This document shows, in pieces, positions 5,361 to 27,930 of a stretch of DNA of 64,000 bases. A program made the position numbers and the translations under genes. The notes under the pieces are model-generated. The model saw only the letters and a program-made list of their open reading frames with translations. It ran no database searches and was not told the origin of the DNA. The stretch is from Octopus vulgaris (lineage: Eukaryota). The DNA lies in assembly GCA_951406725.2 (NCBI GenBank), contig OX597817.1:130448001-130512000 (forward strand). The letters are read 5' to 3'. Position 1 is the stretch's first letter; each line of letters starts with the position of its first letter.

Positions 5361-6447
5361 GGTGTGTGATAATGCAGGCGATTTTGTTACCATTTGCTAC
5401 CGTAGAGACTCGACAACTCCATTTGTCTTCGTTGATAATCACGTGATACCTAATCTATTTCTGAAAATAGTTTTTTGTTGTTTTTTTTTCTTTTTACTTT
5501 ACTATGATTGTTGAGAAATCTATACGAAAGTTGTTAAATTTCAATAGCCTTTTTCCATATATTGATTGTTATTATATTTTTTTTGTCATATTTTGGCCAC
5601 CGCTTTTATAAGTTCTCAGTAAATACCTATATTGAGGATTAGGACGGTGGCAATCTTAACTGCCACTGTGTGTGTGGAATAGGGAACCTGCATTCAAACG
5701 GGTCACGGTTAGTTGGTTGTCAGTTGAATATATTGACTATACATACGTCTCTGTATCTAGAAGGTGTGGCTTTACACGTGTGTGTGTATAATAAATGTAT
5801 TTATACAACGTCTGCTCTATGATTTTTACAATAACACCCGGGCGACCCTGTGGGAGGCTCTACATGGTCGCATGATCAGCTAGAAATAGCAACTAAATAT
5901 ACCTATCGACTATTAAACTAAATGATTCCTAGATATTCTGCACGGATAAAAACACTGGATCGTCATTGTTTTTCGACTTGGATTGCCTTATTGCTAAGTA
6001 AACAGCAGTAATACCATTTGGGAGTTTCTGCTCCAGAGTGAAGTGAGCGCTAGCATACATGATACAGTGAACCAAGAAAGACTGTGATCTTTAGTATTTT
6101 AGCACAACTCAGAACATGTTTCGCTCTTATTAGACTTCCTTCGTGAAGCGTAGTCTAACTGAGAATGAGGAACTTCTTGCAATACTGTATTGTCATCCTC
6201 GATTCTCAGCATCTTTTGCTTGTGTGTATGTCTTTTATCTTACATTAGTTTCGGTCGTTGCAGTAGGGTACCGTCCTCAAGGATTTAGTTGAAGAGATCG
6301 AACACAGTACTTATTGTACCGCGCTCTTCTTGTCGAACTGCAATGTAAGCAAGACAAAACTGGTTGTCAAGAGGTACTGGGACCCACCACCCATATATAT
6401 GCATGCACATATATGCATATATATATACATACATATATATGTGTATA

Positions 6448-7490
6448 CTCTTTACTTTTTTGTTTCAGTCATTTTGACTGCGGCCATGCTGGAGTACCGC
6501 ACTTAGTCAAGAAAATCGACCCCAGGACTTATTCTTTGTAAGCCTAGTACTTATTCTATCGCTAAGTTACGGGAACGTAAACACACCAGCATTGGTTGTC
6601 AAGCGATGCTGGGGACACACACAAACATATACACACACACACATATATATATGTGTATATATATATGTATGTATGTGTGTATATATATATGTGTGTATAC
6701 ATATATGTATATATTTATATCTATGTGTACATATCTATGTGTATATATCTGTGTATATATGTATGTGTATATATATGTATATTTGTATATATATATATGT
6801 ATATATACGTGTGTATATACATATATGTATATGTATGTATACATATATGTATATGTATGTATACATATATGTATATGTATGTATACATATATGTATATGT
6901 ATGTATACATATATGTATATGTATGTATACATATTTGTATATGTATGTATACATATTTGTATATGTATGTATACATATTTGTATATGTATGTATACATAT
7001 TTGTATATGTATGTATACATATATGTATGTGTATGTATGTATGTGTATATATGTGTATGTATGTATATGTATATATGTATGTATATGTATATATGCATAT
7101 ATATATATACATATGCATATATGTTTATATGTGTATGTGTATATATGTATGTATATGTATATATGCATATATATATATACATATGCATATATGTTTATAT
7201 GTGTATGTGTATATATGTATGTATATATATGTATATATGCCTATATATACATATGCATATATGTTTATATGTGTATATATATTTATACATATGCATATAT
7301 GTTTATATGTGTATATATATTTATGCATATGTATAAATGTAAGACTTATTACAGATTTTGCTTGTCACTGTTTTATGGGGTCAGTTTTAATTTATAGACT
7401 AGTCTATCAAATTCTGCCCAAAGTACCACGCACTGGGACTGAACCCTAAACCACATAGTTGAGAAGCAAGCTTCTTACCACACAGCCACT
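6448..7490 (-). mobile_element. SINE family A with a ~720-bp expanded internal TA/TG microsatellite
   Basis: Tail at 6448-6615, head at ~7415-7490, microsatellite at ~6616-7338 in between. Confidence 0.85.
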
Positions 7491-7494
7491 TTAT

Positions 7495-7536
<42 letters not shown>

Positions 7537-7804
7537 TTATAGTTTAATGGTCCATGTAGCAAAAGCGGGTGAGAAAGTGGGACATGTGTAGGTAATCGTG
7601 AAAAAAAAAACTCTCAATGCGGATGATAATCACTTTTTTTTTTTTTTTTTTTCACAAATCTCTAAATCACTTTACTCCCTACACCACAGTAGCCAAACCG
7701 GATTTCGTCGATAATTCATTTCTAAGAAGTAGATAAATATTCATAATATTGCTAATAACGTGTTTGTTTGGCTTTTTTTGGCCTTTTTTTTTTCCTGATG
7801 GTTT

Positions 7805-8214
7805 TATCTTTTACTCATTTCAGTTATTAGACTGCGGTCATGCTGGAGCACCGCCTTGAAAAATTTAAGTCGAACGAATCGGCATCAATACTTTTTCTGT
7901 TGTTGTTGTTTTAAGCCTGATACTTATTATGTCGGCCTCCTTGCCGAACCGCTAGATCACAGGGACGTAAGCACACCATCACCGGTTGTCAGGCAATGGA
8001 GGAGGAGCACACACGCACACATATATATACATACACACACACACACACACTCACAAAACGGGCTTCTTACAGTTTTCGTCTACCAGATCTAATCACAAGT
8101 TTTTGGTCGGCCCGAGGCTGTTGTAGAAGACACTGTCCTCAAGTGCCACGCAATGAGACTGAACCCAAAACCATGTGGTTCGGAAGCAAACTTCTTACCA
8201 CGCAGCCACGCCTA
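7805..8214 (-). mobile_element. SINE family A, A1 tail
   Basis: Full head and tail modules in reverse orientation, with an internal (CA)n tract. Confidence 0.85.
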
Positions 8215-9547
8215 CGTCGTTATTTATCCTTATGCAGTCCGGAAATGACGTTTCATGTGTCACTCGTTTAAAAAGTCATTAATGAAGATTATTCATCACC
8301 TTTTTTTTTTTTGTCCATAATTTTGAAAATTTAGCCTGACTGCCTTGTCCTTTTCGTATGTTAAGGTGGGGGCAAAAAAAAATCATGTATAGTTAGTGAT
8401 ATTACTCCCTCGCCCGCTTTTCTAGGAGGTCAGTTTTACTAGAGCCAATCCTATTGCATGAGACGAATTTTATAAATTATTGAACGTGACATCGGCCTTC
8501 GTCATCCATTCAGCGCTTTCACTTCCAGGAACCCCGCATTAACTACTGGCAATTATTTCCATCTTTCTCATTTCACTGCCAGTAACTTCTAAATGTTTAA
8601 ACAGGTATGACTGGTTAAGAAGCTCGTTTTGCAACCTAGTGGCTTCGGGTTCGATCCACTGCACAGTACCATGGGCAAGCGTTTTCTATAGCCTTGGGTC
8701 GACCAATACCTTGTGAGTGAATTTGTTAGACGGAAACTGCGTGAAAGCTTTCGTGAGAGAGAGAGAGAGAGTTCCTCATCAAGAATCGCTCAGTTCGCTA
8801 CCTTAGAAACATCGAAAGAAAATAACATGAAACCCATGGAAAACAAAACGCTGTAGCCTTTTCTTTAAACATAATCTTGGAAGTGTATTATCCAATGTCT
8901 CAAGCTTAGTACAATGGATTTTAAGGGAGATTTGGTTGCTATATGTAACACGTCTGGGCTCTCCAACTGATTCGTGTGAGTTATATTATTGTGTCGTGGT
9001 TGTGAAAGAAATTTTGAAGTTTTTTTGACTGGAAATACTTAGCAGAAGGTGAACTTTGCTGATCTAGTCAGGCCTAAGGCATGCCCACATTGTATTTGAT
9101 ATAATGAGACTGAATAAAAGATATGGCTACGGTTAGAACGGCTCTGATCATAGTTCTGCTGGACCAGCACTGACGCCTTGTATGACAAGCATGTTTAATA
9201 ACGAACTAGTGGTAGGTCTTCTATGTGGTCATTCAACATGCTAGAAACAGCCAAATTTCTCTCAAACCATACTCTGACGCCTTGAAATAAAAAGGAATGA
9301 ACATACAGGATTGTGTATTCCTAGCTACTTTATATTTGGGCGATGGTCTGTTTCAGTCATTTGCGACTATGCTGGGGCATTGTTTTGTATGAACAAAAAA
9401 TATCGTTACAACGGGAACATCTTTGATCATAAGCCGGTTTGCATCTTGACTGACTTGGAGCTCAACAGCAACTATCTGTCTAACATGTATTAGATATAAT
9501 TAGTTTACTGTTAAATACATAAGGCGTCTGTATGCAAGATATGAAGG

Positions 9548-25118: not shown

Positions 25119-26356
25119 TCCATCATATACATACATATATATATAAACAATACACACTCACATACACACACATATATTCAGCCTTACAGTGATTGTATAA
25201 AAGATACCCCAAGAACATCCTTCCTTCAGCAGTACCATGCTGAAGAACTAACCATATCAAGGAAACATCAATGTACATCCCCCAAACATGAGCCAGTAAC
25301 CTCACAAGGGAGATGCCCACCTTTATTCAATTGAACTCCATCCCTAAATCATGTACACCTGTTCTCTCCGACTTGCTTGTTGTGTGTGTGTGTGCGTGTG
25401 TGTGTGCCCGTGCGCGCTCCTCGATTGTTACGATGTATATGCTAGCGAGTATTTACGTGGGTATTTATCTGTGTGTATGTTCTATACTGTATGCGTATCC
25501 AAACCTTCTAATGCAGGTACGCACTGACAAGCAACCATTCACCCACAAATTTGATTTGTCAAACCTTCTTCAACTTCGGTCTTCAAACTACTTGCGCAAA
25601 CAAGGGACGGACAGTTAGGTGGTGGTAGTGGATGGTCGTACGATGATGATTGATGGTAGTGGTAATCATGCTAGCCATTTCCAGGTATTGGTGACCTGAA
25701 CTCTCTGAACTCCACTTGCCCACATACGTCCACTCCTGTCGAAGGAAAGTTGCCAACCTCTCTCTCTCTCTGTATGCCTGCATTTCTTTCTGTTGCTGTC
25801 TTTTTCACTCTCTTTCTTTCTGTCTATAATTTTCCTCGAACAATTTAAAATGAGACATTTTTTTTTTCACTGTTATTGTTGTTATTGTTGATTTGGTTTC
25901 AACCTGCACATTAAATGCACAAATAATTGCACATGACTGTCCACTCGAAAAGATCACCGCTACCGCTTCTTCCAACACCTTTCTCCCCTCTCTTATACTG
26001 TCACTTTGTTCAGTCGTCTAAACCACAGATGCATACAATTTTATATATTAAGACACACACATACAGCTAATACGCATAGAGCTTTATATGTTTATAACAC
26101 ACACTCATATATATAGATACATACATGTACGCACACACACATACACGAGTGCGTTCATATATGCACATATGTGCGTGTAAGACAGTTTATTTTTACTGCT
26201 AAGTCACCATGACACGACAAACACCTGTAAACTTGGAAACATTTCCTTAAAACAGTGCTGTGAACCCGAAATATTGCTACTACTACACAGCAAAAGAAAA
26301 ATATTTTCTGAGACAAAAACAGACTGATGAAACTGTGTGTCCGTGTGATATATATA

Positions 26357-26580
26357 TACCGGAGTAAACACATAAATGTGAAACAAGGTGGAAAAAAGAG
26401 TACTCAAATACCAGGGATAGAGTAATATGCTTTATTTCAAAGCAGCAGAAATTCAACAAAACCTGTTACTCTGAGTTTCACGTTCCCGTTCGTCGGACAG
26501 TTTTTGTTGTCCGCCGAGGGCGAACGTGAAACTCAGAGTAACAGGTTTTGTTGAATTTCTGCTGCTTTGAAATAAAGTAT
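26357..26580 (-). mobile_element. Penelope-like pseudo-LTR remnant with an inverted partial copy
   Basis: Arms 26427-26499 and 26508-26580 form an inverted repeat; each carries a hammerhead-like motif followed by AATAAA. Confidence 0.6.
26454..26510 (-). ncRNA. minimal type I hammerhead ribozyme-like motif (variant core)
   Basis: Minus strand: caacaaaaactgt CCGACGA acg-ggaa-cgt GAAA ctc-a-gaGTA acaggttttgttg. Stems I, II and III all pair, and the cleavage triplet is GUA. Confidence 0.65.
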
Positions 26581-26654
26581 GTATATATATATATGTTAAT
26601 AGAATGAGATAAAAAAAATCTAAGGCTGTGAGAGTTTTCAGAACATTTATAAAG

Positions 26655-26706
26655 ACGTCTTACAGCTATTTCCGGGAATTTTATATATCCATTCATGAGG
26701 AACGGT
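26655..26706 (-). ncRNA. degenerate Penelope-type hammerhead motif
   Basis: Minus strand: cgttc CTCATGA atgga..ttcccg GAAA tagct GTA agacg. One core mismatch; near-palindromic stem III atagctgt. Confidence 0.4.
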
Positions 26707-26882
26707 GCGAGAAAATGTTTAAGTAATAGTTATTATAGAGAGGATACAAAATACAGAGTGAAGTGGAGGAATGAAAACAGACGTGAGATACGTAAGGATA
26801 TTGTATCTGCAGTTCCATTATTTAAGCAGAATGGTGTATATATAAATTTCCTGTACCTTGTGTGTGAGTTCCAATATATATA

Positions 26883-27225
26883 TATGGTTAAGAAGCGGGC
26901 TTAGCAGCCACGTGGTTTCGGGTTCAGTCCCATTGCGTGTTGCTTTGGGCAAGTGTCTTCTACTGTAGGCCCGAGCCGACCAATGTCTTTGAATGGATTT
27001 GGTTGACGGAAACTGTGACAGCCTATGCGTATGTACATATGTGTGAGTGTGTCTATATTTGTTCCCCAACTGGTGTTGGTTTGTTTACGTCACCCTATAA
27101 CCTAACTATTCGACCAAAGATACAATAAGTCCCAAATTTTAAAACAGTATTGGAGCAGATTTTTGTGAGACGAAACCCTTCAAGGCGGTGTTCCATCATG
27201 AACGCACTTGACTGGGACATGTAAG
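26883..27225 (+). mobile_element. SINE family A, diverged
   Basis: ggttcagtcccattgcgtg..gggcaagtgtcttctact, plus a recognisable tail. Confidence 0.8.
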
Positions 27226-27251
27226 AGACAAATTATATATGTGTGTGTGTG

Positions 27252-27930
27252 TCATGGCGATACCTGGGCCTACGCAAAGTTGCAGAAAGTGTATGGAGAG
27301 GAGTTTATGAGCCGCACACAAGGGTACGAGTGGTTCAGACGTTTCCAAGATGGCCGAAAAATGTCGATATTGATGAACGCTCTGGGAGACCCGCAACCAG
27401 CAGAACTGAGAAAAACATTGTAGATGTGTGTGCAGCTGTGATGAGAAATCGTAGAATCACCATCCGTGAGTTATTAAAGGATGTGCAGATTAGTTACGGT
27501 ACAGTTCAGTCCATTATCACTGAAGATTTGGATATGAGACGCGTATCTTCCAAGTTTGTACGAAAACTGCTCTTAGCTGACCAAAAGGATACTCGGGTTT
27601 CAGTTGTACAAGATCTCCTTGATTATGTCGAGAACGATGAAAACTTTTTGAAAATTTTGCGTAGGCTTCTGAGCAGATATCGCCAAGCTTTTAGCAAAAT
27701 TTGCTGCAGATTCTCTGCTGAACTTTCTCTGTCATGGTCAATGCAATGATCACACGCGACACACCTTCCTTCCAAGCACTGTTGTAAACAGTGGAAGTGA
27801 GGTAGAACGTTAAAACTTAGTGCGCATGCACAGCAGAGATCAAAATCAATATGTGCCAAGTGCTTCACTCTGCGTGCTTTAGCTTCTTTACTATGGCAAC
27901 AGTCCGGATACTTATTCATCAGACCACGTA
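27252..27930 (+). mobile_element. decayed mariner (Tc1/mariner) element: transposase N-terminal HTH pseudogene plus right TIR
   Basis: KLQKVYGEEFMSRTQGYEWFRRFQDGRK, frameshift, then VDIDERSGRPATSRT..RRITIREL..ISYGTVQSII..RRVSSKFVRKLL. TIR-like end cagtccggatacttattcatcagaccacg-TA at 27900-27930; no DD34D domain. Confidence 0.9.

Follow-up and report, generated by a model that had tools for sequence, protein, structure and literature searches.

A C4-core hammerhead motif in a head-to-head insertion of a Hydra-clade Penelope-like element in Octopus vulgaris

The insertion and its hammerhead motif

The window (the whole 64,000-nucleotide stretch of Octopus vulgaris contig OX597817.1 that was analysed) contains an insertion of 220 bp (26358-26577), flanked on both sides by (TA)n, in which two element ends meet head to head (Table 1). 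The tailed arm is 98% identical to the reference copy of its family across -12 to +137 (counted from C3 of the hammerhead core as 0). The plus-strand arm matches the first arm at 93% over 73 nt, and has the core CCGCCGA and a broken stem II. Thus, the inverted copy with a damaged core that an earlier sequence-only reading had described is real. That reading placed the feature at 26427-26580; the fold-back was correctly recognized, but the element end was not, as it reaches 26358, 72 nt past AATAAAG. The damage to the second arm has one match genome-wide, i.e., it is confined to this locus. The clustered substitutions form a 4-bp mini-hairpin, CGCC-GAG-GGCG (window 26513-26523, plus strand).

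Table 1. Coordinates of features at the insertion (window positions)
Feature	Position	Strand	Remark
(TA)n target, left flank	26348..26357	.	sequence
Tailed arm: 5'-truncated Hydra-clade Penelope-like end, start 12 nt upstream of C3	26358..26508	-	
72-nt tail of tailed arm	26358..26429	-	8158 genome matches to 18-nt tail pattern
Minimal type I hammerhead motif, U4C core	26454..26509	-	layout near-identical to Hydra-2_aMil
Predicted cleavage site after GUA, between 26467 and 26466	26466..26467	-	position by homology
Palindromic stem III, A15.1-CTC-A-GAG-U16.1	26468..26476	-	8/9 positions self-complementary
Stem II, ACG-GGAA-CGT	26480..26489	-	inner 2 bp and GNRA loop alone constant across subfamilies
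Core C3-C4-G5-A6-C7-G8-A9, CCGACGA, C4 at 26495	26490..26496	-	subfamily consensus
Head-to-head junction, 1-nt overlap	26508..26508	.	
Untailed arm: second 5'-truncated end, begins 3 nt upstream of C3, stops at AATAAAG	26508..26577	+	
Damaged core and stem II of untailed arm: four substitutions within 26514-26521, including A6C	26511..26521	+	
(TA)n target, right flank	26578..26595	.	sequence

No host exon was identified near the insertion. Contigs from presumed-RNA sequencing runs cover the insertion flanks and a young ORF, and are uninformative on strand, ends and expression. Many contigs pile up where high-copy repeats adjoin the insertion (window ~26884-27010 and 26630-26850); one of these repeats we take to be SINE-like. 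An open frame at window 27225-27749 (plus strand) presumably resembles the N-terminal part of a mariner-type transposase. Taken singly, the locus is ordinary. The genomic copy is most likely inert, given its truncation, the damage to its partner arm and the predicted pairing of the core in read-through RNA.

The minimal type I hammerhead layout, a three-stem junction open at stem I, is present on the minus strand as the sequence-only reading described it, and is the single hit to a relaxed descriptor on both strands of the entire 64-kb window. In this motif (minus strand, 26509 to 26454), stem I (CAACAAAAACTGT/ACAGGTTTTGTTG) consists of 12 pairs and one A.G mismatch. Its outermost C (26509) is contributed by the junction, and in untruncated copies the stem is longer, with 14/16 positions paired. 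Stem II is followed in minus-strand order by GAAA, ACTC-A-GAGT and the GUA triplet, with AATAAA at 26436-26431. Ten of the 11 invariant positions (C3, U4, G5, A6, G8, A9, G12, A13, A14, A15.1, U16.1) are kept; the exception is U4, which is C. The canonical CUGANGA core is absent in the window's subfamily and present in the youngest sister subfamily. Sister subfamilies have A.A or A.G in place of the outer A-U pair of stem II, and stem II is 2 bp in the two youngest subfamilies. Folding of the monomer is no better than that of shuffled sequences (z -0.46) and leaves stem III unformed. An intermolecular stem III duplex is predicted (-9.4 kcal/mol). Stem III is self-complementary (8/9 positions or similar) in every tabulated element, while its middle base varies (A, C, T or G).

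Rfam gave no hammerhead match for the window stretch or for six loci with related motifs, canonical relatives included. Its miRNA matches, below threshold, were rejected as generic hairpins. A near-identical published layout is that of Hydra-2_aMil, which shares stem I CTGT/ACAG and stem III ACTC-N-GAGT (Craig et al., 2021; PMC8557442). Metazoan hammerheads of Penelope-like elements (Cervera & de la Pena, 2014; PMC4209133) are likewise of type I with a palindromic stem III, and also have opposite-strand neighbours, mostly truncated copies and predicted low activity. However, the core variant given in the available text of that paper is U3-A8, with U4C unmentioned there, and the usual G10.1-C11.1 pair is absent here.

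The parent element and its clade

In longer copies, a reverse transcriptase (RT)-endonuclease frame lies upstream, separated by a 3' UTR of ~1 kb. We identified single ORFs of 711 and 708 aa that encode an RT and then a C-terminal GIY-YIG-type endonuclease (motifs YRDD/YKDD and VVY..YTG). Pfam and PDB searches of the ORFs returned no match; the closest named relative carries PF01541. The ORF includes RWK at 37, DKT (not DKG) at 113, a CxCX5C linker at 562, CxxC at 667 and CxH at 695. It lacks CCHH, as there is no Cys between VVY (581) and YTG (598). The marks of the Hydra clade, as listed in PMC8557442, are RWK, DKT, CxCX5C, CxxC, CxH and absence of CCHH. The (TA)n target is found on both flanks here and in most sampled copies. 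Judged by these protein motifs and target features, the parent is a Hydra-clade Penelope-like retrotransposon. Neptune-clade identity was rejected (no CCHH in the endonuclease, no CX2-5CxxC linker), as was identity with Hydra-1_Obim, in which the hammerhead differs.

The view that the motif lies in the pLTR end of a Penelope-like element is therefore borne out by the Hydra-clade protein motifs and the link to an ORF. Neighbouring RT/endonuclease ORFs and tandem copies, which the same reading had proposed as signs of such an element, were both found in related copies elsewhere in the genome. Its alternative, a retrozyme-like family, is not supported, as the parent is an autonomous, ORF-bearing element. 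The window has a head-to-head pair only, and tandem copies elsewhere contain the ORF. Non-LTR retrozymes (bioRxiv 10.64898/2026.07.22.740005) are similarly non-coding, hammerhead-bearing and related to the pLTRs of Penelope-like elements, but they form head-to-tail arrays rather than a head-to-head truncation of an autonomous element.

In a sister subfamily with ~86% protein identity, a 727-codon frame is open in many copies, and partial tandems are ordered pLTR with hammerhead, tail, ORF, pLTR. In tandem copies of full length (L104, L106), the sequence of the 72-nt tail is continued by the 5' UTR and the ORF. Hydra-clade elements described in PMC8557442 are alike in protein motifs, (TA)n target, pLTR hammerhead and an inverted 5'-truncated copy with a tail at one end only. 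The published tails are 30-40 bp, in contrast to the 72-nt tail and ~1 kb 3' UTR found here.

The tail of one family copy (L031) contains an inserted 2.1-kb element (6134-8297) that has long terminal inverted repeats and a high copy number. Splicing was rejected as the cause of the divergent 3' continuation of another copy (L002), which is due to a nested element with terminal inverted repeats; at least 1387 candidates for it exist genome-wide. A general splice acceptor at stem I was also rejected, as the window's subfamily lacks the AG and the arms are collinear past stem I. No GT-AG joint was found on laying contigs along a full-length copy.

Position 4 of the core in Hydra-clade families

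The 2.8-Gb genome was searched by exact pattern matching, with reversed patterns as controls. A 22-nt core pattern matched 2957 times, a 31-nt pattern 7091 times and the tail pattern 8158 times; controls gave 0. U4 occurs in 3833 of the 7091 matches to the 31-nt pattern and another base in 3258, and every non-U entry at this position among the 100 matches listed is C. Loci chosen by 3'-ORF DNA alone (n=20) provided 15 readable cores, 14 with C4 and one with U4. Sampling covered the first 38 Mb of a single contig. The tail-selected sample comprises 84 of the first 100 matches, as 16 were already core-selected loci and were left out.

Subfamilies were sorted by markers outside the core, and their ages were estimated from 58-nt tails in groups of 5-24 insertions. 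C4 is the likely source state in subfamilies with mean tail divergence of 0.091, 0.035, 0.021 (the window's type) and 0.018, with the core CCGACGA first and CCGATGA later. In the youngest subfamily (tail divergence 0.006), U4 is found in 26/26 cores. Only seven cores represent the oldest subfamily, with CG (three), TG (three) and CA (one) at positions 4-5; the TG and CA cores are likely products of CpG decay of C4. On these consensus sequences, C4 appears to have run through four successive subfamilies, with reversion to U4 in the youngest. The path from CCGACGA via CCGATGA to CTGATGA consists of two CpG-type transitions. The CpG-type decays G5A and G8A (opposite strand) occur in single copies and are the majority in no subfamily; their lack of fixation (2 vs 0 events) is weak on its own. 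The U4 regained by the youngest subfamily of family 1 may mean that cleavage was favoured.

CCGACGA had been put forward as a possible family consensus; it is the consensus of the window's subfamily. The same core is enclosed by unrelated stem I and stem II sequences in three families of this genome, in 8 metagenome loci and in File S2 of PMC8557442. By inspection, the stems thus covary across related elements, in line with the accompanying idea.

The second Hydra family has a 717-codon frame with 46% protein identity, unrelated stems I and II and the same stem III. With a pattern for longer stems II, 8555 matches were obtained, against 2 and 2 in the controls; by hand count C4 is present in 55 among the 100 matches listed, a count to which families 1 and 3 contribute two rows each. 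In a tree (core masked, short alignment, midpoint root), 13 C4 rows (mean pairwise distance 0.063) are nested among 12 U4 rows (0.213), with one U4 row within the C4 group and support of 93/97 for the C4 node. C4 in this family would thus be a derived, independent gain in a young lineage with open frames. C4 as random decay was rejected, given that it is a subfamily consensus in family 1 and marks a nested young lineage in the second family. The core of that young lineage is CCGAAGA, and the CTTCGG in the internal loop of its stem II is perfectly complementary to the CCGAAG of this core, which is not so in older copies (L160-L163, L172-L201; e.g., L161 4761-4811). Pairing of these segments is a possible alternative fold that would hide the core.

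Family 3 (L321-L340) has the same stem III and 198 pattern matches; by hand count, the 100 listed include 81 U4, 12 C4 and 7 other cores. A third origin of C4 was not called, as 12 C4 among the 100 listed are insufficient. Of 35 metagenome loci encoding relatives, 8 have a sense-strand hammerhead outside the ORF, all with U4, and two of these share CTCAGAG. Four more descriptor hits were left uncounted: three were antisense, and one, of C4 type and within an ORF, had a stem III that is not palindromic. At L254 and L168 (minus strands), hammerhead-like motifs with a canonical core were noted on the strand opposite to a Hydra-like ORF or away from it. The Hydra hammerheads in File S2 of PMC8557442 have U4 in 26/26 rows, whereas the window's subfamily has C4 and a stem II of 2-3 bp. 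Based on the File S2 rows and the metagenome relatives, the motif is by homology a hammerhead, and U4 is the ancestral state of the Hydra clade.

Anatomy and proposed origin of fold-back insertions

An inverted family partner lies within 300 nt of 52 of the 83 sampled tailed arms; 30 are without one, and one has a neighbour that was inserted separately. When three samples are taken together, a tailed arm is combined with an untailed one in 86 of 87 distinct head-to-head pairs (27/27 for core-selected pairs). The lone exception is a second pairing inside a complex insertion (L294). Junctions are of many different kinds. The substitution cluster in the second arm at our locus may be a templated error of junction repair. 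One arm of the L204 insertion ends within the tail, at a further GGTAT that may be a third RT start site. In the L299 insertion, a rare variant is common to the two arms.

Tailed arms reach -14 or beyond in 23/83 cases; 16 of these end at -22 to -14, two at -31 and -44, and five pass -110. The commonest 5' end of all arms is -14 (25/174). Instead of an RNA 5' end, this sharp limit could be an RT stop or an effect of microhomology (palindromic CTAG or TTAA at -14 to -11). A match to YYANWYY, a short and weak motif that we take to be Inr-like, is located at -17. Penelope has an internal promoter, and its transcription starts within the pLTR (PMC2377424). Few arms (3/174) have 5' ends within 2 nt of the predicted cut (+30), thus cleaved RNA is not visibly the template.

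We consider it likely that the stub represents two hammerhead-bearing Hydra-clade ends formed by two-strand priming, that cutting by the C4 core is slow or absent, and that jumping is nevertheless probably unhindered. Two-strand priming is what we infer from the anatomy of the insertions. The RT-endonuclease would nick both strands of the (TA)n target; one strand would prime synthesis at the start site at the tail end, and the opposite strand would do so at AATAAAG. Each cDNA would then be extended towards the RNA 5' end, probably ~17 nt upstream of C3, and the two cDNA ends would join through 0-4 nt of microhomology. That there are two separate cDNAs is suggested by relative arm lengths, which vary between pairs.

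The Poseidon element PAc of Anolis (Frangieh et al., 2024; PMC11167929) provides an experimental parallel. It uses an AT-rich target, its tail is bounded by two internal RT start sites, and cutting and extension take place on both DNA strands. However, it belongs to a different clade and its start sites do not differ between strands, and here the pairs are strictly tailed plus untailed; this strict pairing is thus unexplained by the Anolis work.

One alternative is that the inverted arm arises by self-priming (snap-back) on one template rather than by two priming events. This would account for the strict pairing, and has been put forward to explain Penelope copies arranged head to head around palindromic junctions (PMC3846280); here too, junctions are often on palindromic 4-mers, and the commonest arm end (-14) is among the palindromic positions given above. 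We regard it as unlikely. Among 68 pairs, the arm that extends further 5' is the untailed one in 26, the tailed one in 13 and neither in 29. If the tailed arm were made first, the untailed arm could not be the further extended, and simple snap-back of a tailed cDNA would not yield such pairs. Moreover, the arms of L226 carry different states of a loop II subfamily marker; those of L218 also differ at subfamily markers, and the differences in both suggest two template molecules.

The sequence-only reading had also proposed that read-through RNA sequesters the ribozyme. Such RNA, from either strand, is predicted to pair the core and GAAA almost completely, and the hairpin is stable (-111.3 kcal/mol, z -18.9; 0/200 shuffles as good). 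That part of the proposal stands. A fold-back selected as an RNA switch (off in read-through RNA, on in RNA that starts in the loop), or as an ADAR or Dicer substrate, is very improbable: with a partner next to 52 of 83 tailed arms and varied junctions, the hairpin is a routine insertion product that needs no selection, the second arm has decayed, and, as noted, there is no identified host exon nearby. A literature search on editing of these repeats found nothing specific.

The source elements already carried C4, and it has been copied thousands of times. Constraint would persist at G5, A6, G8, A9, GAAA, stem I and the stem III palindrome, with drift of position 4 and the base of stem II. Since C4 was amplified in two lineages and stem II has shrunk to 2 bp in the youngest subfamilies, fast self-cleavage is probably dispensable for retrotransposition. 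Hammerhead mutants left insertion of the Anolis element in vitro unaffected (PMC11167929), and in metazoans the cleavage activity of minimal hammerheads is weak, that of dimers included (PMC4209133).

A C4 hammerhead that is fully functional in vivo, with stem III dimerisation and rescue by the element's own protein, and that trims or resolves tandem transcripts, is a tentative alternative that we hold to be somewhat less than even in probability. The remaining core, stem I and palindrome are kept across families, and the Anolis hammerhead cleaves only with protein (PMC11167929). A natural U4C variant of a viroid hammerhead (Ambros & Flores, 1998, as given in PMC3088659) is slower in vitro and sufficient in vivo. 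It has the same core change, but is a single variant of a canonical ribozyme, whereas C4 here is a lineage consensus in thousands of copies. Against full function are the scarcity of arm ends at the predicted cut, the 2-bp stem II in both of the youngest subfamilies, and the contact of U4 with the A6-N7 phosphate (PMC3088659), which should by inference be lost with C4.

It is also conceivable, though doubtful, that the motif is a non-catalytic dimerisation signal, in which stem III pairs two RNAs and presents their 5' ends to a dimeric RT-endonuclease, and so yields head-to-head stubs. If so, two fixed start sites would give the tailed-plus-untailed pairs, and position 4 could toggle freely between U and C. 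The universal self-complementarity of stem III with its free middle base, the drift of position 4 and stem II, and the copying of the same RNA segment twice per fold-back would all fit, and the Anolis protein is predicted to be dimeric (PMC11167929). However, G5, A6, G8, A9 and GAAA remain conserved, which is what catalysis would demand, the duplex is predicted at only -9.4 kcal/mol, and Naiads without canonical hammerheads still make inverted insertions (PMC8557442).

Several of the features described here are established, namely inverted pLTRs, tails and hammerheads of the dimer type; PMC8557442 and PMC3846280 describe a tail that one of the inverted ends may carry. Our literature search found no C4 or U4C in Penelope-like elements; Lunse et al. 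(2017), which deals with about this class of variant, or the supplements of PMC4209133 may already list U4C. Searches restricted to CUGANGA miss about half of these motifs. The fixed pairing of tailed with untailed arms and the sharp 5' limit upstream of stem I constrain the insertion mechanism. A rough extrapolation (8158 x 52/83) gives ~5000 short hairpin insertions, from which double-stranded RNA may arise.

The role of hammerheads in Penelope-like elements is described as an open question in PMC8557442. The dimerisation signal, if true, would explain what they do. The Octopus vulgaris genome offers natural U4/C4 pairs of the same ribozyme in two independent Hydra lineages, both recently amplifying, with intact reading frames and with position 4 changing in opposite directions. 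These pairs make the role of the hammerhead directly testable.
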